A DNA stretch of 64,000 nt, from assembly GCF_036507355.1 (NCBI RefSeq), contig NZ_AP027877.1. The stretch is one strand, 5' to 3'. Shown here piece after piece: positions 38,668 through 64,000 of the stretch. Under the pieces are notes generated by a model that searched no databases, was not told where the DNA came from, and worked only from the letters and a program-made list of their open reading frames with translations. This DNA comes from Escherichia coli (GTDB taxonomy: Bacteria > Pseudomonadota > Gammaproteobacteria > Enterobacterales > Enterobacteriaceae). The number at the start of each line of letters is the position of its first letter. The first letter of the stretch is position 1. The position numbers and the translations under genes are program-made.

Positions 38668-39429
38668 ATGGCACAGGTTGCGATAATTACCGCCTCCGAT
38701 TCGGGGATCGGCAAAGAGTGCGCATTATTACTGGCGCAGCAGGGGTTTGATATTGGCATTACCTGGCACTCTGATGAAGAAGGGGCAAAAGACACCGCGC
38801 GTGAGGTGGTTAGCCACGGCGTACGTGCGGAGATCGTGCAACTGGATCTCGGCAATCTGCCAGAAGGTGCGCAGGCGCTGGAGAAACTCATTCAACGGCT
38901 GGGGCGTATTGATGTGCTGGTGAATAATGCGGGCGCAATGACCAAAGCGCCGTTTCTTGATATGGCTTTCGATGAGTGGCGCAAGATTTTTACCGTTGAT
39001 GTCGATGGTGCATTTTTATGTTCGCAAATTGCTGCCCGCCAGATGGTGAAACAAGGGCAGGGTGGTCGCATCATCAACATTACGTCGGTACATGAACATA
39101 CGCCGCTGCCGGATGCCAGCGCCTACACAGCCGCTAAACATGCGCTCGGCGGGTTAACCAAAGCAATGGCGCTGGAGTTGGTCAGGCATAAGATTTTGGT
39201 GAACGCAGTCGCACCTGGGGCGATCGCTACGCCAATGAACGGCATGGATGATAGCGACGTGAAGCCCGACGCGGAGCCTTCGATTCCTCTGCGGCGTTTT
39301 GGCGCAACGCATGAGATTGCCAGCCTGGTGGCGTGGCTTTGTTCGGAGGGTGCAAATTACACCACCGGGCAGTCGTTGATAGTGGATGGCGGCTTTATGT
39401 TGGCGAATCCGCAGTTCAACCCAGAATAG
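38668..39429 (+). CDS. yohF: short-chain dehydrogenase/reductase (SDR)
   Basis: ORF trimmed to MAQVAIITASDSGIGKECA (Rossmann TGxxxGxG-like), 253 aa; catalytic YxxxK (YTAAK). Confidence 0.85.
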   Translation: MAQVAIITASDSGIGKECALLLAQQGFDIGITWHSDEEGAKDTAREVVSHGVRAEIVQLDLGNLPEGAQALEKLIQRLGRIDVLVNNAGAMTKAPFLDMAFDEWRKIFTVDVDGAFLCSQIAARQMVKQGQGGRIINITSVHEHTPLPDASAYTAAKHALGGLTKAMALELVRHKILVNAVAPGAIATPMNGMDDSDVKPDAEPSIPLRRFGATHEIASLVAWLCSEGANYTTGQSLIVDGGFMLANPQFNPE

Positions 39430-43938: not shown

Positions 43939-46236
43939 ATGAAATGGCTATGTTCAGTAGGAATCGCGGTGAGTCTGGCCCTGCAGCCAGCACTGGCGGA
44001 TGATTTATTCGGTAACCATCCATTAACGCCTGAAGCGCGGGATGCGTTCGTCACCGAACTGCTTAAGAAAATGACAGTTGATGAGAAAATTGGTCAGCTG
44101 CGCTTAATCAGCGTCGGCCCGGATAACCCGAAAGAGGCGATCCGCGAGATGATCAAAGACGGTCAGGTTGGGGCGATTTTCAACACCGTAACCCGTCAGG
44201 ATATCCGCGCCATGCAAGATCAGGTGATGGAATTAAGCCGCCTGAAAATTCCTCTTTTCTTTGCTTACGACGTGCTGCACGGTCAGCGCACGGTGTTCCC
44301 GATTAGCCTCGGTCTGGCCTCGTCTTTTAACCTCGATGCAGTGAAAACGGTCGGACGTGTCTCTGCTTATGAAGCGGCAGATGATGGCCTGAATATGACC
44401 TGGGCACCGATGGTCGATGTCTCGCGCGATCCGCGCTGGGGACGTGCTTCCGAAGGTTTTGGCGAAGATACGTATCTCACCTCAATAATGGGTAAAACCA
44501 TGGTGGAAGCGATGCAGGGAAAAAGCCCGGCAGATCGCTACTCGGTGATGACCAGCGTCAAACACTTTGCCGCATACGGTGCGGTAGAAGGCGGTAAAGA
44601 GTACAACACCGTCGATATGAGTCCGCAGCGCCTGTTTAATGATTATATGCCGCCGTACAAAGCGGGGCTGGACGCAGGCAGCGGCGCGGTGATGGTGGCG
44701 CTGAACTCGCTGAACGGCACGCCAGCCACCTCCGATTCCTGGCTGCTGAAAGATGTTCTGCGCGATCAGTGGGGTTTTAAAGGCATCACCGTTTCCGATC
44801 ACGGTGCAATCAAAGAACTGATTAAACATGGCACGGCGGCAGACCCGGAAGATGCGGTGCGCGTGGCGCTGAAATCCGGAATCAACATGAGCATGAGCGA
44901 CGAGTACTACTCGAAGTATCTGCCTGGGTTGATCAAATCCGGCAAAGTGACGATGGCAGAGCTGGACGATGCTGCCCGCCATGTACTGAACGTTAAATAT
45001 GATATGGGGTTGTTTAACGACCCATACAGCCATTTGGGGCCGAAAGAGTCTGACCCGGTGGATACCAATGCCGAAAGCCGCCTGCACCGTAAAGAAGCGC
45101 GTGAAGTGGCGCGCGAAAGCCTGGTGTTGCTGAAAAACCGTCTCGAAACGTTACCGCTGAAAAAATCCGCAACCATTGCGGTGGTTGGCCCGCTGGCAGA
45201 CAGCAAGCGTGACGTGATGGGAAGCTGGTCGGCGGCAGGTGTTGCCGATCAATCCGTGACCGTGCTGACCGGGATTAAAAATGCCGTCGGTGAAAACGGT
45301 AAAGTGCTGTATGCCAAAGGGGCGAACGTTACCAGTGACAAAGGCATTATCGATTTCCTGAATCAGTATGAAGAAGCGGTCAAAGTCGATCCGCGTTCGC
45401 CGCAAGAGATGATTGATGAAGCGGTGCAGACGGCGAAACAATCTGATGTGGTGGTGGCTGTAGTCGGTGAAGCACAGGGGATGGCGCACGAGGCCTCCAG
45501 CCGTACCGATATTACTATTCCGCAAAGTCAACGTGACTTGATTGCGGCGCTGAAAGCCACCGGTAAACCGCTGGTGCTGGTGCTGATGAACGGGCGTCCG
45601 CTGGCGCTGGTGAAAGAAGATCAGCAGGCTGATGCGATTCTGGAAACCTGGTTTGCGGGGACTGAAGGCGGTAATGCAATTGCCGATGTATTGTTTGGCG
45701 ATTACAACCCGTCCGGCAAGCTGCCGATGTCCTTCCCGCGTTCTGTCGGGCAGATCCCGGTGTACTACAGCCATCTGAACACCGGTCGTCCGTATAATGC
45801 CGACAAGCCGAACAAATACACTTCGCGTTATTTTGATGAAGCTAACGGGGCGCTTTATCCGTTCGGCTATGGTCTGAGCTATACCACTTTCACCGTCTCT
45901 GATGTGAAACTTTCTGCGCCGACCATGAAGCGTGACGGCAAAGTGACGGCCAGCGTGCAGGTGACGAACACCGGTAAACGCGAAGGGGCCACGGTAGTGC
46001 AGATGTACTTGCAGGATGTGACGGCTTCCATGAGCCGTCCAGTGAAGCAGCTGAAAGGCTTTGAGAAAATCACCCTGAAGCCGGGCGAAACTCAGACCGT
46101 CAGCTTCCCGATTGATATCGAGGCGCTGAAGTTCTGGAATCAACAGATGAAATATGACGCCGAGCCTGGCAAGTTCAATGTCTTTATCGGCACTGATTCC
46201 GCACGCGTTAAGAAAGGCGAGTTTGAGTTGCTGTAA
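43939..46236 (+). CDS. bglX: periplasmic beta-glucosidase (GH3)
   Basis: ORF 43867..46236 trimmed to MKWLCSVGIAVSLALQPALA signal peptide (765 aa); GH3 domains. Confidence 0.9.
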   Translation: MKWLCSVGIAVSLALQPALADDLFGNHPLTPEARDAFVTELLKKMTVDEKIGQLRLISVGPDNPKEAIREMIKDGQVGAIFNTVTRQDIRAMQDQVMELSRLKIPLFFAYDVLHGQRTVFPISLGLASSFNLDAVKTVGRVSAYEAADDGLNMTWAPMVDVSRDPRWGRASEGFGEDTYLTSIMGKTMVEAMQGKSPADRYSVMTSVKHFAAYGAVEGGKEYNTVDMSPQRLFNDYMPPYKAGLDAGSGAVMVALNSLNGTPATSDSWLLKDVLRDQWGFKGITVSDHGAIKELIKHGTAADPEDAVRVALKSGINMSMSDEYYSKYLPGLIKSGKVTMAELDDAARHVLNVKYDMGLFNDPYSHLGPKESDPVDTNAESRLHRKEAREVARESLVLLKNRLETLPLKKSATIAVVGPLADSKRDVMGSWSAAGVADQSVTVLTGIKNAVGENGKVLYAKGANVTSDKGIIDFLNQYEEAVKVDPRSPQEMIDEAVQTAKQSDVVVAVVGEAQGMAHEASSRTDITIPQSQRDLIAALKATGKPLVLVLMNGRPLALVKEDQQADAILETWFAGTEGGNAIADVLFGDYNPSGKLPMSFPRSVGQIPVYYSHLNTGRPYNADKPNKYTSRYFDEANGALYPFGYGLSYTTFTVSDVKLSAPTMKRDGKVTASVQVTNTGKREGATVVQMYLQDVTASMSRPVKQLKGFEKITLKPGETQTVSFPIDIEALKFWNQQMKYDAEPGKFNVFIGTDSARVKKGEFELL

Positions 46237-54869: not shown

Positions 54870-56870
54870 TCATCCTTGTTGCTGAAGCATGGGGAATAAT
54901 TGTTCGCAAAGCAAAACACCGTTATTCATTGCTTCTACCCGTGCCCCGCTTTCTGTATTACGAAATTGTCCCAACACATGTGCCAGCCGATAAAAACCCA
55001 CCGCGGTGAGGTCATTCGCCAGCAATTCTGCCTGACTAATAGCGCTCTGTTCCTGATAGCGCCAGCCGTTATGGAGCAGCTGAATAAGTAACGCCTGGCA
55101 GCGTATCAGCAACTGATGAGCAGTAGACTGCACAGGCAAAACGCTGGCAGAAGGTAGCGGTGCCACAGGCGTAGTTTCTGCGTCCAGCGCCCAGGCACGA
55201 GTCTTTGTCATCATTACCTGTGGTTCCAGTGTCAATTGCCCATCAACAAAACTGACAAAGCCAGAAACCAGACACACGGGGTCGTCTGTTTGTTGCAAAA
55301 GCGCCGCCATGCGTTCAACGGCATAAGGCGCGCTGGCTGAGGCTGGCAGTGATAACGTCAGCAGATTATCTTCACCTTCGCCGCTGATTACCTGCGCATC
55401 CAGCGTCTGGCGGCTGCTATCCCAACCGAGCGAAATACACTCAGCGACCGGCAGAATAAATAAGTTATCGACCTGATTAAGAGGCCGTATGCAGGCGGGG
55501 GGACGCTGGCGTAAATATTCCCGCAAAGCCACAATGCCCGGCTGGCGTAACGGCGCGCTCAACATTCGCCAGGCATCAGGCGACAGCGGCACAACGCTGC
55601 TTAAGCGGTTGCGGGTAGCTAACAGCAGCTCGCCATCGGCACTGCGTTTTGCTGCTTGTGAAACAATTTGCCCACCCGCCAGTGCGCCAGCCTGAAAACT
55701 AAACAGCCGACGCGTAGCTGCCGGTGAGTTTTCCTGTTCACTTCGCGGCCAACTGCGCGAAAGGTGCAAAATACTGCCGGTGTCGGGATCGGTAAACCAG
55801 ATGCGTAAACCATAATGCTCAATATCCTGCCAGCAACGCATACCTAAAGACACCAGCCGCAGATGATCAAGCTTTGCTTCTCCGGCAATGCCAGAGCCAA
55901 CGACCGTGCGCCACGGCACAGGAGGAACTTCACCAACACTGTCGCGCCGGGCCATCTCTTGTGCGCAATTTAATCGACTGTTTAATGCCGCAAGCTGACG
56001 TAAGCATTCTCCGGCATGATAGTGGCTGGCGCGAGTGTGGAAGGCATCAACGCTTGCCCGTAGCTGTCGTAGTGATTCACTCACCCATCGCCAGTTGCAG
56101 CGTTCCGCTGCTTGCTGCGCGCGGCTGAAAGCGGCCTCGTAGTGAATAAGCGGCTGGCTGATGCCGCCAAACCATAATGCCTGGCTTAATTGCTGAACAT
56201 ATTGACGACACGTTTGGCCTTCTTCGCTGGCAAACGGGTCGTCAGATGATGTGACGTGTTCGCTGCGCATCTGCCAGATTAAATGAGTAAATTCCGCTTG
56301 CTGAGTTTTGGCCTCGACGAAGGCCTGCACAGCCAGTACGACATGTTCGCAAAGTGTGCCTTCAATACAATCACAACGGGCGAAACGAATGCTGCTACGG
56401 GAATAAAAACGCACATCGCTCATCGGTAAGCGGGCAGAGGGAATTTCGCCCGGCGTACAGAACAACTCAATGGTGATGCCTTTAGCGACCAGCGCCTGCG
56501 CGCGTTTGCGGGTGGCATCGGGCAGGGTAGCCAGTTCTTCCAGCCAGATTGCCGGATCCCACTCTTCTTCTTTTTCTGTGGGCTGGACGGTGGCACAAAG
56601 TCGTTGATAACTTAACACCAGCATCACGCGATGACGGCACATGCCGCTGGCCCCGCAGCTGCACTGAGCCTCTTTCAGTGCCTGGCCGTTCGCCAGCTGG
56701 GTACGGACACCGTCACTGAAGGTGGCGATTAAAGCGCCGTTCTCATGGCTGATCTCCGGGACGTTGCCATTTTCCAGTTCCTTAAGACTGCGCTTAACAA
56801 AACCGGCATTGCTTAACGCTGTCAGGGCCTGCGGTGTCAGTTCTAATAATTCCGGACGTAGTGAATTCAT
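54870..56870 (-). CDS. yehQ: SWIM zinc-finger domain protein, last gene of the yehLMPQ operon
   Basis: ORF 54870..56894; start placed at Met9 where ATG overlaps the yehP stop (ATGA); two CxC-Xn-CxH motifs (CSCGASGMCRH; CDCIEGTLCEH). Start uncertain. Confidence 0.75.
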   Translation of the reverse strand: MNSLRPELLELTPQALTALSNAGFVKRSLKELENGNVPEISHENGALIATFSDGVRTQLANGQALKEAQCSCGASGMCRHRVMLVLSYQRLCATVQPTEKEEEWDPAIWLEELATLPDATRKRAQALVAKGITIELFCTPGEIPSARLPMSDVRFYSRSSIRFARCDCIEGTLCEHVVLAVQAFVEAKTQQAEFTHLIWQMRSEHVTSSDDPFASEEGQTCRQYVQQLSQALWFGGISQPLIHYEAAFSRAQQAAERCNWRWVSESLRQLRASVDAFHTRASHYHAGECLRQLAALNSRLNCAQEMARRDSVGEVPPVPWRTVVGSGIAGEAKLDHLRLVSLGMRCWQDIEHYGLRIWFTDPDTGSILHLSRSWPRSEQENSPAATRRLFSFQAGALAGGQIVSQAAKRSADGELLLATRNRLSSVVPLSPDAWRMLSAPLRQPGIVALREYLRQRPPACIRPLNQVDNLFILPVAECISLGWDSSRQTLDAQVISGEGEDNLLTLSLPASASAPYAVERMAALLQQTDDPVCLVSGFVSFVDGQLTLEPQVMMTKTRAWALDAETTPVAPLPSASVLPVQSTAHQLLIRCQALLIQLLHNGWRYQEQSAISQAELLANDLTAVGFYRLAHVLGQFRNTESGARVEAMNNGVLLCEQLFPMLQQQG

Positions 56871-58003
56871 GACTGAAGATTCTCCGCAAGCCATGATGCC
56901 AGCTCGCCCGGTGTCATGGCGGCTATTTGTGCGCCGACATTTACCAGCGCCTGGGCCGTATCGTGGTCATAGCAAGGTGTTGCGGTGCTATCGAGCGCCG
57001 CCAGTCCCAGCACTTTGATGCCGCTCTGGACACACTTTTTCACCTGATGCGTCAGTAATGATGATGAACCCCCTTCGTAAAAATCGCTCACGAGGATAAT
57101 GACGCTTTTCGCTGGTTGTTCAATAAGTTGCCGACCATACTCCACGGCACTGGCGATATTGGTTCCGCCGCCTAATTGCACTTTCATTAATAACTCTACC
57201 GAATCGGCAACGTCTGCCGTGAGATCAACCACACTGGTGTCAAAAGCGACCAGATGGGTACGAATGCCGGGTAACTGCCATAAACAGGCCGCCATCACCG
57301 CAGAGTGGATCACCGAATCGACCATCGAGCCGCTTTGATCAACCAGTAAGACCAGTTGCCATTGTTCGCTTTGGCGTTTAATGCGGCTGTTAAAGCGGGG
57401 GGATTCGATATACAACTTGCCGTGTTGTGGGTGCCAGTGTTGCAGGTTGGCGCGCAGAGTACTTTTGAAATCAAAGTTTCGCGCCAGTGGAATAAATGAG
57501 CGGCGACGGCGATCGCGGACACCAGAAAAAGCCTGACGAACTTCCTTTGCCAGTCGAGCCATAATTTCTTCAACAACCTGGCGCACTATCCGGCGGGCGG
57601 CAGCCAGTACTTCGGGATTCATCAGATGTTTGGTGTGCAAAACGGCGCGTAGCAGGCTTTCAGACGGTTGCATACGTTCCAGCACGTCGAGATTCGTCAC
57701 CACATCTTCAATGCCATAGCGCAGTACGGCATCGCTTTCCAGCCGCTCAATCACCTGTTGCGGAAACAGCGTGTGAATACTGTTGATCCACTCAGGGGTG
57801 GTGAGATTTGAGCCACCTAATCCACCAGAGCGTTCACCACGCTGGAGCCGTTCAGGATCGCGCCCATACAGCCACTCCAGCGCGTGGTCTATCTGCCGGG
57901 CGTTGTCATCCAGCCCACAAAGCGTCGTTTCTGCCGCTTCGCCAAGAATTAATCGCCAGCGTTGTAGCTCACGGGTGGTCAGAAGATCGTTCAGTTCAGA
58001 CAT
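56867..58003 (-). CDS. yehP: von Willebrand factor A (VWA) domain protein
   Basis: ORF 56867..58231 trimmed to MSELNDLLTTRELQ... (378 aa); MIDAS motif DQSGSM in a hydrophobic beta-strand context (LVLLVDQSGSMVDS); start overlaps yehM 3' end by 8 nt. Confidence 0.8.
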   Translation of the reverse strand: MSELNDLLTTRELQRWRLILGEAAETTLCGLDDNARQIDHALEWLYGRDPERLQRGERSGGLGGSNLTTPEWINSIHTLFPQQVIERLESDAVLRYGIEDVVTNLDVLERMQPSESLLRAVLHTKHLMNPEVLAAARRIVRQVVEEIMARLAKEVRQAFSGVRDRRRRSFIPLARNFDFKSTLRANLQHWHPQHGKLYIESPRFNSRIKRQSEQWQLVLLVDQSGSMVDSVIHSAVMAACLWQLPGIRTHLVAFDTSVVDLTADVADSVELLMKVQLGGGTNIASAVEYGRQLIEQPAKSVIILVSDFYEGGSSSLLTHQVKKCVQSGIKVLGLAALDSTATPCYDHDTAQALVNVGAQIAAMTPGELASWLAENLQS

Positions 58004-60275
58004 GGAAAACTCCCCAGTTTTGCAGCGATGCCAGTGCCTGCTGTTCGAGTTGTTGATGATGTGCAATGGCTTGTGGTGGGCAATGCAACGGCATTTGCAG
58101 CGCCGAAACGGGAAGTTGCGCCAGTTGATAATGTTCAAGCACCTGATGCGCCAGCGTCCCGCGTTCTCGTGGTGGTAGCCAGGCCATCGCCGCGCGTAAA
58201 TCGGGCAGGGCATTGATAAAATCGGCATCACTTAGTTGATTTAAATGACTGCTGAAACCGGCGATAAATGCCGGCTGACAGGCCAGTTGATGGCGGGCCA
58301 GCGCCAGCAAACCGTGCAGCGCTTCGCTGGATTGTGCCGGGGATAACTGCGCCAGCATCGTCAGCGCCGCTTCGGCACTAGCGTTGGGATGTTCCAGACG
58401 CATCAGTGCGCCAAGAGCCGCGCCGCGATCCAGCGCCGGGGCATGATTCGCATGACTGCGGCGCTCCAGTAAGGCTACCGCCGCAGAAAGCGAAACGCCG
58501 GATAAATTAACGCCGCTATGTAGATCGCGCAGAATATGGCAAAGCGCTTGCCAGCTATGCAGGTGAGCGTGAAACTCCTTTTCATCCGGTCTGCCGTTAG
58601 ATTCACACAGCCACAGCGTGCGATCGATAGCCGCGCATAACGTCGTCTGTAATATCTGCGCGCCTTGCATACCGCTGATTTCATCCAGCCGCCATAAGGC
58701 ATATAGCACTTCCAGCGCCTGGCCCATTTCGGCAAATTGATTTTCCTGGGCTATTAATAATGTGAGTTGTTCCAGTAATTGTTGACTGAAGGACGCCAGA
58801 CCCGCTAACGCTGCCTGGCTAAGACATGTGGTGATACTGCCGATTCCACCCGCGTCCAGCATATCGGCTTCTAATTTATGGCGTGCGGCTTCCTGGAGTG
58901 TGGCACCAAAGCAGGCGGCCTCAATCAATGCCGCATGCTGGCTAAGCGGGCGGGTTAATTTCCAGCGTTCTTCACCATTGCCTGCAAGTGTCAGTGTACT
59001 TCCCTGCTGGCGTACAATCCCTGGGATCTCCAGTATTGCCAGCCGATGTAACACCTGACTTTGCGCTAGTCCATTGGGGTTAAAGCGATTTAAGGTAAGC
59101 TCCGCCGGAAGAGAGATTGTGGTACGTTCCAGTTCGCAGGTGACATCTTTTGGCAGAGGCGGTTGTGGCGTGGAGGGGGCAAGTTTACCGAATCCGTCAC
59201 CCGCTAATGTGTCTATCAACGTTAGCAGAATCGGATCGGTGTCGGGATGAATAACTCCGCGATAACTCCACGGCAACGGCGCATTCAGGGCTTCTTTAAT
59301 CAGCGAGCCTGCTATGGCATCCAGCCAGTCAGTGCGTAACGGTAGTTTATGTCCGCGCAACTGTGCCAGCGCCATCGCATGCAGATGAGCGGCAGCCATA
59401 TCCGCGGTCGAAGCAGGCAAGTGGTGTTGGCGCAAACGGGTAAGAACCGTTTTTAGCAGTTGTTCTCCCGCCTGCTGTAAGCCCCACTGCCAGCACCAGC
59501 TTTGCCAGACCGGGGCAGGCATTCCGGAAAGGTATCCTGCCAGCACATCAAGGCGCTTTTCACTGTAGGGTGTGAGATAACAACCTGTAACGGCATCTGC
59601 CAGCGACGGCAATTCTGGCGTGTTAATTTCCTGCGGACATTCGCGCCACATTTTTGCCAGTGCCGGAGCGTGCCAGCCACCGCAGACAACTAACACGTCG
59701 CCATTATTTTGCTGCATCGCCCATCCAATCCAGCGGGCCATAAAGGCTTCGCGCTGACGATTGAGTGCATCTCCGGGGGAGTCGCCCCGCAGTTGGGCAA
59801 AATAGTGCGCCAGCGCAGAGGGTAATGCAGTTTGCTGGCTTTCATCTTCGAACAAGTGATCCCACAGGGTATCGCTGTTATCCATGCGGGTGGCACGCAG
59901 CAGTAAGGCCTGGCTTTCATCTTGCGTATCAGGCGAATCGTCCTCTTCTTCACTCTGTGCCCAGCAAGGCAAATCGATGAAGTAAGTTTGTGCCTGAATA
60001 CGACGTGCGGCTTGTAGCGCCTGCCACTCCGGCGAAAATTCAGCAAATGGCGTCCAGGCACCGCGCCCGGGGGCCGTACCGTCCTGATACTGGCAATAAC
60101 TGTAAATAGCTACCGGAAGCTGGTGGGCTAAAAACAGTTCGTCTACCAGGTCATTAAAATCAGCCGGGCCTTCAATCAACACGTATCGTGGCCGCTGGCT
60201 TTCGATTAACGATTTCACCAGCCGGGCGCAGGCCGGGCTATGATGCCGGATGCCGACAATTAACGGCTCGCTCAT
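57996..60275 (-). CDS. yehM: large protein of unknown function (DUF5682-like)
   Basis: ORF 57996..60449 trimmed to MSEPLIVGIRHHSPACARLV... (759 aa); no catalytic motif recognised by eye. Confidence 0.8.
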   Translation of the reverse strand: MSEPLIVGIRHHSPACARLVKSLIESQRPRYVLIEGPADFNDLVDELFLAHQLPVAIYSYCQYQDGTAPGRGAWTPFAEFSPEWQALQAARRIQAQTYFIDLPCWAQSEEEDDSPDTQDESQALLLRATRMDNSDTLWDHLFEDESQQTALPSALAHYFAQLRGDSPGDALNRQREAFMARWIGWAMQQNNGDVLVVCGGWHAPALAKMWRECPQEINTPELPSLADAVTGCYLTPYSEKRLDVLAGYLSGMPAPVWQSWCWQWGLQQAGEQLLKTVLTRLRQHHLPASTADMAAAHLHAMALAQLRGHKLPLRTDWLDAIAGSLIKEALNAPLPWSYRGVIHPDTDPILLTLIDTLAGDGFGKLAPSTPQPPLPKDVTCELERTTISLPAELTLNRFNPNGLAQSQVLHRLAILEIPGIVRQQGSTLTLAGNGEERWKLTRPLSQHAALIEAACFGATLQEAARHKLEADMLDAGGIGSITTCLSQAALAGLASFSQQLLEQLTLLIAQENQFAEMGQALEVLYALWRLDEISGMQGAQILQTTLCAAIDRTLWLCESNGRPDEKEFHAHLHSWQALCHILRDLHSGVNLSGVSLSAAVALLERRSHANHAPALDRGAALGALMRLEHPNASAEAALTMLAQLSPAQSSEALHGLLALARHQLACQPAFIAGFSSHLNQLSDADFINALPDLRAAMAWLPPRERGTLAHQVLEHYQLAQLPVSALQMPLHCPPQAIAHHQQLEQQALASLQNWGVFHV

Positions 60276-60285
60276 GCATCTTTCC

Positions 60286-61374
60286 TCACGGCAGGCGGTG
60301 ACGGGCTTGATAATAAGCCTGCCAGTGAGCTTCTTTATGTGTGGCGACACGCTGTTCGAAGTAACGGCGCAGACGAGCGCGATCTTCTTCGTTATCTTTG
60401 ACGATGGTTCCGGCAATACAGTCCACCAGGTCGGCAGGCTCCCCCGCACGATTCGCTAAAAACCAGGCGCGGACGCCCACAGCGTGAGCCACATTCACGG
60501 CTTCAGCGGTGGACATAATTGCCGTCAGTGTATCCATTGACGTTTTCTTTTCGCCGTTGGCACGCAGATCGCGGAAGGTGCGGACCAGTAACTCCAGTAC
60601 CGCGTCAGGCACTTTATGCGGAATACCGCTATGGGCCAGCAAACGCGCCGAAGCACTGGCGACAAGCTCCAGCTCCTGGGCGAAATCCATAATCGGAAAG
60701 ACAGTTTCAAAATCGAAGCGACGCTTTAGCGCAGCACTCATTTCATTGACGCCGCGATCGCGGGTATTGTCAGTGGCAATAATATTAAAGCCTTCTCGCG
60801 CATAGAGCTGACTGGCTTCACCAGTGAGTTCCGGCACCGTCATCACCCTGTCAGAAAGCATACCTAACAGACAGTCTTGCACTTCCAGCGGTGTACGCGT
60901 TATCTCTTCAAAACGGACGATTTTGCCGTCGCGCATTCCCTGGTAAAGCGGGGCTGGGACCAGCGCTTCCGTTGATGGACCATGATTGATAAGCAGGGCG
61001 TAGTTCCAGCCGTACTTGATTTGATCTTCGGTAGTAGATGCGCCGTCCTGGATGGTTAACCCGGCATCGCCGCTAATAGCGGTTGCCAGTAATTCAGACA
61101 GGAGAGATTTTGCGGTGCCAGATTCCCCCACCAACATCAAACCGCGTCCGGTGGCAAGAGTGACTAACATACGTTCGACAGCGGAGGGACTAATCACCAC
61201 TTTACGGCTAATATTTTGCGCGCTATCGCCAAGGATAAAAGCACGGGCCGCAGGCAAACTTAACTGCCAACCGGGCGGGCAAGGTGCGTTATCATTTTGT
61301 TTTAATTTTGCCAGTTCATCGGCGTATAACACAGCAGCAGGCGGACGCTGCAGATGATTATTCTGCGGTGACAT
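60286..61374 (-). CDS. yehL: MoxR-like AAA+ ATPase
   Basis: ORF 60286..61440 trimmed to MSPQNNHLQRPPAAVLYADE... (362 aa); Walker A GESGTAKS at nt 61105..61128; AAA+ core. Confidence 0.85.
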   Translation of the reverse strand: MSPQNNHLQRPPAAVLYADELAKLKQNDNAPCPPGWQLSLPAARAFILGDSAQNISRKVVISPSAVERMLVTLATGRGLMLVGESGTAKSLLSELLATAISGDAGLTIQDGASTTEDQIKYGWNYALLINHGPSTEALVPAPLYQGMRDGKIVRFEEITRTPLEVQDCLLGMLSDRVMTVPELTGEASQLYAREGFNIIATDNTRDRGVNEMSAALKRRFDFETVFPIMDFAQELELVASASARLLAHSGIPHKVPDAVLELLVRTFRDLRANGEKKTSMDTLTAIMSTAEAVNVAHAVGVRAWFLANRAGEPADLVDCIAGTIVKDNEEDRARLRRYFEQRVATHKEAHWQAYYQARHRLP

Positions 61375-62383: not shown

Positions 62384-64000
62384 TTAATGGAAAATGACGT
62401 CAGGTGCGCTTAACGCCTCACTCAAATCAAACACATCAAGTTCGGCAAAAGTGACGGATTTATTGTCACGGTACACTCGAAGAGAACGGAAGCTCATTAA
62501 CGCTTTGCTATCAACATTGTAGTGGTTAAAACCGGGTGAAAACTTAAGGACCAGCCGGTACTCGCCCAGGTCATAGACAAATGCGTCCTCATAGCCTGAC
62601 TCCCAGCCTTTGTATCGCATTCCCATAAGTTGCCCAACGGTAGCGGATTTACCTTCCCAGCGAGTCAGGCTGTTACTGGTTGACTCGTCAGGTGTGAGCA
62701 GCACCGTGCGGCGCGACAACTGGCGAAAAGGCGGCATAATTTCGTAATCGGCAAAAAGCTGTGCAAATTCACTGCGCATTTCTGCTGTCATTTCTAACGG
62801 GTGGGCAATGCCAATCAGAGCGTCCGCAGGCAGGTCAATTGGCTCATCTTGCGCATTGCAGAACTCCCCCTCTGCGGCCACACGAAAGGCGTTGAGTAAA
62901 CAACGCGGTTCATTTGCCGGATAAACCCCCCATATTAATCGCTGGGTAACCAGACGGGTAAAGGGATGATTAACAAACAGAGAATGAAAATCTGCCAGCG
63001 ACCAGCGTCGGGTGGTACGTAGGGCAGCTTCAAGACGCGGGAGCAGGTTTTTGCTCACCTGAGTAGCATCTTTTTTTAGCCCTTTTAGTCGGGCCAGTGC
63101 CTCGGGCGCTTTCAGTTGATCGTCATCGGCGCGCAACCGGGGAACGCTTTTCTGGTGAACGTTTTGCTGATCAAAGATAACCGGGTTGAGGTTTTCATCG
63201 AAGCGAACGGTAAACTGCCGGGGACCAAAATCAAAACTCAACGCCTGCGGATCATCAAGGCCCAGGGTTGGGACTAATCTGTCCGCTAGCTCTTCCTGGC
63301 TTAGCCCGCGATTTTCTGCGACCACCTGAAGAAATTCCGCCGCGTTATCACGTAAGGGGCGGGATTTAGCCCGTTGCGATATATGATGCAGCTGTATCAG
63401 CGCCATATCATTATTCATCAGGGTAAGGATGTTCAGGCCGCTGACAGCACGGGCAGATTTGCCTTCTTGTGGCCAGGCGAGGATCTGTGTCGTCAGATCC
63501 CGTGCCGTGCTTTCGTCACCAAAGAGACTTAACGCCAGAAATGCCCAGTTGTCTTTTGCGGGGGCACCAGCTTGTTGCCACGCAGTGAAGAGATCCCAGG
63601 CAAAAGCTGCCAGCGTTTGTGGCTGGCAGAACGTTTTCAGTTGTTCCAGCCCGCTATAAAAACGTCCCCCCTGGGTAAAGCGCAGCATTTCGCCGATAAT
63701 TTCCAGAGCGTCATCGGTAACAGTTTGATTATTAGTGATAAGGCGCGGCCTGGACCACATTTGCGGATGCCAGAAATCAGGGGCTTTTGGAATGCGTGCC
63801 GGGTAAATCTCTATTGGACTCTGTTTAAGTAATTGTTCCAGGGCAGGCCATAGATCTGTACGCTGCCAACGATTGGCTACAGTTTGTAGCAATTCGCCAT
63901 GCCCATGTTCGTAAAGTAAACGCAGGGCAAGTAATGCATCTTCGCTTTTATCGCTAGATTTGGTGAAGACAAGAGGGATAAGTGCAGTAGCCGTATGTTC
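62384..64000 (-). CDS. yehI: DUF4132-family large protein (partial; N-terminal part lies beyond the window end)
   Basis: Track ORF 62384..63892 (502 aa) is an internal-Met artefact; the frame remains open to the window end. Confidence 0.8.
   Translation of the reverse strand, partial: EHTATALIPLVFTKSSDKSEDALLALRLLYEHGHGELLQTVANRWQRTDLWPALEQLLKQSPIEIYPARIPKAPDFWHPQMWSRPRLITNNQTVTDDALEIIGEMLRFTQGGRFYSGLEQLKTFCQPQTLAAFAWDLFTAWQQAGAPAKDNWAFLALSLFGDESTARDLTTQILAWPQEGKSARAVSGLNILTLMNNDMALIQLHHISQRAKSRPLRDNAAEFLQVVAENRGLSQEELADRLVPTLGLDDPQALSFDFGPRQFTVRFDENLNPVIFDQQNVHQKSVPRLRADDDQLKAPEALARLKGLKKDATQVSKNLLPRLEAALRTTRRWSLADFHSLFVNHPFTRLVTQRLIWGVYPANEPRCLLNAFRVAAEGEFCNAQDEPIDLPADALIGIAHPLEMTAEMRSEFAQLFADYEIMPPFRQLSRRTVLLTPDESTSNSLTRWEGKSATVGQLMGMRYKGWESGYEDAFVYDLGEYRLVLKFSPGFNHYNVDSKALMSFRSLRVYRDNKSVTFAELDVFDLSEALSAPDVIFH

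Follow-up and report, generated by a model that had tools for sequence, protein, structure and literature searches.

The yehQ gene of the Escherichia coli yeh locus

We have analysed a stretch of 64,000 nucleotides (nt) of Escherichia coli DNA (RefSeq assembly GCF_036507355.1, contig NZ_AP027877.1), hereafter the window, with emphasis on yehQ, the last gene of the yehL-yehM-yehP-yehQ series of the E. coli yeh locus, and on two short Cys/His motifs in its product. YehQ has two tandem, duplicated modules with the SWIM fold, and the ligand sets of these modules are under strong selection that acts on each set as a unit. The features of the region are listed in Table 1. The ATG at 56870, a start of the RefSeq type, overlaps the stop codon of yehP in the sequence ATGA. 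A longer open reading frame (ORF) of 674 codons that begins at 56894 was rejected, as the N-termini of the homologues favour the start at 56870, where the ATGA junction lies. A yehQ query of 2,025 bp was matched in 5,361 of 5,426 complete E. coli genomes, with a best identity of 98.5%. The product is named "SWIM zinc finger family protein" in RefSeq and "SWIM zinc finger domains-containing protein YehQ", where the plural form "domains" is used, in strain K-12 MG1655. Since both names carry the term, the observation that YehQ is a SWIM protein is correct, yet it had been recorded before; the assignment is thus supported and already known.

The two motifs are conserved SWIM signatures

A preliminary description of the locus, made from the sequence, placed two SWIM-type motifs in a 666-residue YehQ encoded in an ATPase/VWA operon. 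Translation of both minus-strand segments gives the peptides CSCGASGMCRH and CDCIEGTLCEH at the positions described, and both fit the pattern C-x-C-x(n)-C-x-H, with n = 5. This spacing lies just under the range usually quoted for SWIM domains, in which n is 6-16 (PMC5727457). Cluster representatives, 1.84 billion in all, were searched exhaustively, which yielded 865 proteins at E<=0.001; many of these are full length, with identities of 24-47%, and the members that could be named belong to Escherichia, Klebsiella, Erwinia, Pseudomonas, Iodobacter and Streptomyces. The conservation alignment was built from 117 full-length representatives sharing <50% identity. Among these relatives, a spacing of n = 5 is found in 109 of 117 for motif 1 and in 104 of 106 for motif 2.

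All four ligands of motif 1 (C70, C72, C78 and H80) are present in every one of the 117 relatives, and each ligand of motif 2 is kept in 106-109 of them. Counted per sequence, 106 relatives have all four ligands of motif 2 and the other 11 have at most one; intermediate numbers of two or three do not occur. Such an all-or-none loss is as expected for four residues that act as a single site. The 11 relatives without the ligands of motif 2, one of which is from Streptomyces, retain the helix that follows the motif (VLAVWAFR). None of the remaining 12 cysteines of YehQ is among the positions conserved at >=90%, and the seven that were tabulated are mostly replaced among the relatives. When the YehQ sequence was shuffled 200,000 times, a pair of loose motifs arose at a frequency of 1.75e-4, and a pair with n = 5 did not arise at all. 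The entire window contains five loose CxC...CxH matches in its six frames; outside yehQ, they occur only at 39018-39098 and 45797-45820, on the minus strand.

Table 1. Features of yehQ, its product and the neighbouring genes; positions are those of the window.
Feature	Position	Strand	YehQ residues	Basis or remark
yehQ coding sequence	54870..56870	-	666 plus stop	ORF list; RefSeq annotation of a 98.5%-identical locus; AlphaFold2
SWIM module 1	56586..56759	-	38-95	Pfam; DSSP of models; ligand conservation
Motif 1, CSCGASGMCRH	56631..56663	-	70-80 (C70/C72/C78/H80)	Window translation
SWIM module 2	56295..56480	-	131-192	Pfam; hhalign to module 1; DSSP of models
Motif 2, CDCIEGTLCEH	56343..56375	-	166-176 (C166/C168/C174/H176)	Window translation
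Helical bundle	55935..56237	-	~212-312	Holds invariant G236 and R299
Beta-barrel 1, OB-like	55581..55898	-	~325-430	Mildly basic; family mean charge +3.2
Beta-barrel 2, OB-like	55185..55466	-	~469-562	Acidic; -7 in YehQ
C-terminal helical bundle	54873..55133	-	~580-666	Last 52 residues absent from K-12 YehQ
yehP, VWA (CoxE-like)	56867..58003	-		Pfam VWA_CoxE, E 4.5e-71, end-to-end match
yehM, DUF5682	57996..60275	-		RefSeq annotation; homologous neighbours carry PF18934
yehL, MoxR-type AAA+ ATPase	60286..61374	-		Pfam AAA_5, E 1e-31
yehI 3' part, DUF4132	62384..64000	-		Open to window end; translation without stop

Both motifs lie in duplicated modules with a SWIM fold

The Pfam SWIM profile (PF04434) matches YehQ weakly, with borderline scores: the match to module 1 (residues 56-88) reaches 19.1 bits, with an E-value of 9.7e-4, and that to module 2 (residues 160-183) 11.6 bits, with an E-value of 0.21. 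Among the 117 relatives the profile is matched by 77 at E<=0.1 and by nine at E<=0.001, and SWIM is the sole family matched consistently across them; in precomputed Pfam annotation, PF04434 is present on most, though not all, of the close YehQ homologues. When the PDB was searched by sequence, nothing meaningful was retrieved by YehQ itself or by the profiles of the full family and of the N-terminal part, and a search of NCBIfam gave no family for YehQ.

The whole of YehQ was predicted with high scores by AlphaFold2 (predicted local distance difference test score (pLDDT) 93.8, predicted template modelling score (pTM) 0.92), as was a separate run on residues 1-212 (pLDDT 94.4). In both runs, each module has a sheet of three or four short strands, which ends at the CxC, and then a long helix with the CxH at its start. 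According to DSSP, module 1 has strands at residues 39-43, 46-50 and 56-59, a short bridge at 69-70 and then a helix at 79-93, and module 2 has strands at 133-137, 145-147, 152-155 and 164-166, followed by a helix at 175-190. This predicted fold resembles that of solved SWIM domains. The profiles of the two modules were aligned with each other by hhalign over 48 columns, with a probability of 92% and an E-value of 6.7e-7, which indicates that the pair arose by internal duplication. We are therefore highly confident that the tandem SWIM metal sites are genuine, and each module would bind one zinc ion. A further observation concerns a relative of 857 residues (P0148), which has three weak SWIM matches, at residues 63-86, 188-210 and 287-309, suggesting that at least one extra SWIM module precedes the usual pair.

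The preliminary description had also interpreted the two copies as a sign that YehQ is a target-recognition subunit. The SWIM assignment itself holds, as judged by the signature, the predicted topology, the match to solved structures and the conservation of the ligands; the target-recognition role is unproven. The modules are nearly neutral in charge.

Other parts of YehQ

As judged from the predicted models, YehQ appears to be a five-part scaffold, in which a SWIM-SWIM head is followed by a helical bundle, by two OB-like barrels and, at the C-terminus, by a second helical bundle. The N-terminal helices of YehQ (residues 1-37, window positions 56760-56870) carry a strongly conserved motif, in which R5, D/E7, L8, L11, N21, G23, K26, R27, G35 and P38 are conserved at >=90%, a level equal to that of the zinc ligands. 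The barrels, whose residue limits were drawn from secondary structure and which apparently are not mentioned in the annotation of YehQ, have their best structural matches (window positions 55185-55898) among tandem OB DNA binders, namely RPA70, Teb1, HIN-200 and POT1, with sequence identities of 5-14% and Foldseek E-values of only ~2e-3. Compared with RPA70 DBD-A/B, Teb1, HIN-200 and POT1, the second YehQ barrel is acidic, and nucleic-acid binding by the barrels is unproven. The SWIM modules have net charges of -0.6 and +0.5 as family means, and YehQ as a whole is acidic, with a net charge of -9.

The C-terminal bundle is not kept in full by all strains. YehQ of K-12 MG1655 (L011:11101-12945) has 614 residues, i.e. 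52 fewer than the protein studied here; the codons that are absent correspond to window positions 54870-55025, and part of the bundle is consequently lost. The existence of many E. coli and Shigella protein clusters of 500-630 residues suggests that yehQ has been truncated recurrently.

The operon and its conserved gene neighbourhood

The genes of the locus are tightly packed: yehL and yehM are separated by 10 nt, yehM and yehP overlap by 8 nt, and yehP and yehQ by 4 nt. The Pfam matches of YehL and YehP given in Table 1 bear out the earlier statement that yehQ belongs to an ATPase/VWA operon. YehL, which is named "putative AAA(+) MoxR family ATPase YehL" in K-12, additionally has weak NCBIfam matches to GvpN and MadB and a faint match to bpMoxR (E 0.041). 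Upstream of yehLMPQ lie yehK and the 3' part of yehI. The PHROGs families phrog_29006, 31592, 30700 and 33984 match YehQ, YehP and YehM end to end (window positions 54870-60275); we do not accept a phage origin on this basis, as chromosomal genes were probably swept into a prophage prediction.

The gene neighbourhood was sampled, without the pretension of a census, around nine distant YehQ relatives sharing 27-39% identity with YehQ, and eight of these loci were considered reliable. In all eight, the SWIM gene adjoins genes for DUF5682 and VWA_CoxE proteins, as well as one for an AAA_5 ATPase where the contig extends far enough, and in seven of them a DUF4132 gene lies beside the cluster. The 4-nt overlap between the VWA and SWIM genes is seen again in five of the sampled distant loci. 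In one metagenomic lineage, DUF5682 and VWA are joined in a single protein of 1,107-1,148 residues (L002:6678-10001, L003:5666-8989 and L004:5474-8920), which argues for YehM and YehP acting together. DUF4132 is fused to WGR in three loci (L010, L013 and L014), and carries ankyrin repeats in one set. This recurrent neighbourhood points to one conserved module of five components: DUF4132 with or without WGR, a MoxR ATPase, DUF5682, a VWA protein and the SWIM protein. On the evidence of the sequences compared, the gene set DUF4132(+/-WGR)-MoxR-DUF5682-VWA-SWIM is kept from Proteobacteria to Streptomyces.

Some additional observations were made on the sampled loci. WGR is a recurring nucleic-acid-related domain of the system, and at one locus the gene upstream of the ATPase (L002:1-1401) has matches to NAD-ligase adenylation, OB and WGR domains. 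An apparent fusion of VWA_CoxE with two SWIM modules (P0172, L015:10001-12337) was discounted as evidence of coupling; it is probably a frameshift or assembly artefact, given that its contig is full of fragmented genes, including a split DUF5682 gene and a lone WGR fragment. Across the nine loci that were sampled, no gene for a metalloenzyme is conserved beside the cluster and no client enzyme was evident; the DUF4132/WGR proteins are candidate clients by virtue of their genomic position only.

Searches of the literature found no functional study of yehQ, yehLMPQ, DUF5682, DUF4132, SWIM together with MoxR and vWA, or WGR together with SWIM; most matches to yehQ were strings without relation to the gene, and none of the papers listed mentions DUF5682. 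The only expression data that we found for the locus are that yehL and yehM are upregulated in hns/stpA mutants (PMC3686432) and that BglJ-RcsB activates the promoter of the neighbouring molR (PMC3950696). In K-12, molR is present as a pseudogene.

Comparison with known systems

YehQ is like the members of the SWIM family (PF04434), including ZSWIM8, Shu2/SWS1, MuDR-type transposases and MEKK1, in its signature and predicted topology, in its match to solved structures and in the conservation of its ligands. It differs from the described SWIM proteins in having tandem copies, 96 residues apart, with n = 5, in the absence of the ligands of the second copy from ~9% of the family representatives, and in being encoded in a MoxR-VWA operon. 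Moreover, whereas the known SWIM domains are part of a transposase, an SNF2 helicase, a kinase or a ubiquitin-ligase receptor, the pair in YehQ heads a bacterial scaffold with OB-like barrels.

With regard to the operon, yehLMPQ resembles CbbQ-CbbO, NorQ-NorD, CoxD-CoxE, RavA-ViaA and GvpN in that a MoxR ATPase and a VWA protein are encoded in a tight operon. The ATPase/VWA pairs CbbQ/O, NorQ/D and CoxD/E perform ATP-driven remodelling, and CoxD/CoxE and NorQ/NorD function in the maturation of metal centres. Unlike these pairs, YehL and YehP are accompanied by three extra large conserved proteins, i.e. DUF5682, the SWIM/OB scaffold and DUF4132 with or without WGR. The system is also similar to the vWA-MoxR-VMAP systems, which have several components that include an NTPase and a vWA protein plus additional adaptor proteins, and which have been named ternary conflict systems (PMC10910872). 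However, defence islands have a patchy distribution, whereas the yeh locus belongs to the core of E. coli. The PADLOC-DB v2 models gave no match for YehL, YehM, YehP or YehQ, which, together with the core status of the locus, argues against a typical mobile defence island.

Proposed role of the SWIM pair and alternative explanations

Taking these data together, we propose that the two Cys3His SWIM sites lie in an N-terminal head of ~200 residues in which the zinc would be structural. By keeping the small sheet-and-helix modules rigid, the zinc would enable the head to dock with one of its protein partners in the complex. Synthesis of YehQ would be coupled to that of the VWA protein YehP, the ATPase-VWA pair YehL/YehP might be the source of the remodelling force, and contact with a ligand would more likely be made through the OB-like barrels and the WGR/DUF4132 partner than through the SWIM modules. 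The joint reading, in which a scaffold subunit of a MoxR-VWA remodelling complex has the SWIM pair as its zinc-stabilised docking head, is in our opinion somewhat probable; the docking-head role of the pair, taken separately, has about even chances. Docking is preferred over direct binding of nucleic acid for three reasons: the SWIM modules are nearly neutral, motif 2 may disappear with its helix left in place, and Shu2's SWIM domain is a zinc-dependent interface for protein-protein interaction with Shu1 (PMC5727457).

Several alternatives have to be weighed against the docking-head proposal. The SWIM fingers might bind DNA or RNA directly, and YehQ would then serve the ATPase/VWA machine as its subunit for recognising nucleic-acid targets. 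SWIM was predicted early on to bind DNA or proteins (Makarova 2002, as cited in PMC5727457), WGR is often present on partner proteins and on a ligase-like protein encoded upstream at one locus, and the OB-like barrels resemble the DNA binders RPA, HIN and POT1. These hints, however, stem from other domains or proteins and not from the SWIM modules, whose net charge is close to zero across the family in a protein that is acidic as a whole. Taking into account also that the solved Shu2 SWIM domain is a protein-protein interface (PMC5727457) and that motif 2 is dispensable in 11 of the 117 lineages, we consider direct binding unlikely. A related and broader possibility is that YehQ is the sensor or scaffold of an undescribed five-component machine, in which a nucleic-acid structure would be recognised through WGR and the OB barrels and would then trigger remodelling or signalling; this we regard as rather improbable.

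Alternatively, by analogy with CoxD/CoxE, NorQ/NorD and CbbQ/CbbO, the Cys3His sites could handle metal or sense redox state in a chaperone for cofactor insertion. YehP is a CoxE-type VWA protein end to end, YehL belongs to the AAA_5 group and has weak matches of the GvpN type, CoxD/E and NorQ/D have a role in metal-centre maturation, and the historical name of a neighbouring gene, molR, stands for "molybdate metabolism regulator". The signature and the fold are nevertheless those of SWIM, which holds zinc in the solved Shu2 structure, and the sampled loci share no adjacent metalloenzyme gene. That some lineages have lost motif 2, moreover, is easier to reconcile with a structural role of the site than with one in catalysis or transfer, and we find this explanation very doubtful. 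Finally, the motifs are short, their Pfam scores are weak and their spacing is somewhat atypical, so that they might be chance Cys/His patterns without function. The shuffled sequences never produced the n = 5 pair, the ligands are invariant or nearly so over 117 divergent relatives while the other cysteines of YehQ lack such conservation, motif 2 is lost as a whole, and the fold is that of solved SWIM proteins. A chance origin is refuted by these results, and we assign it practically no probability.

Significance

The finding that YehQ has SWIM motifs adds little as such, because SWIM is already in the product name of yehQ. What is added here for an operon of y-genes is that the weaker of the two fingers is also genuine and a copy of the other, with ligands that evolve as a unit, that YehQ contains two predicted OB-like barrels, and that yehLMPQ together with the DUF4132/WGR gene constitutes a module conserved across phyla. 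Studies of the operon thereby gain defined mutants and a defined set of partners for co-purification. If true, the five-component machine considered above would be a new kind of surveillance, repair or conflict system for DNA or RNA, present from Enterobacteria to Streptomyces.
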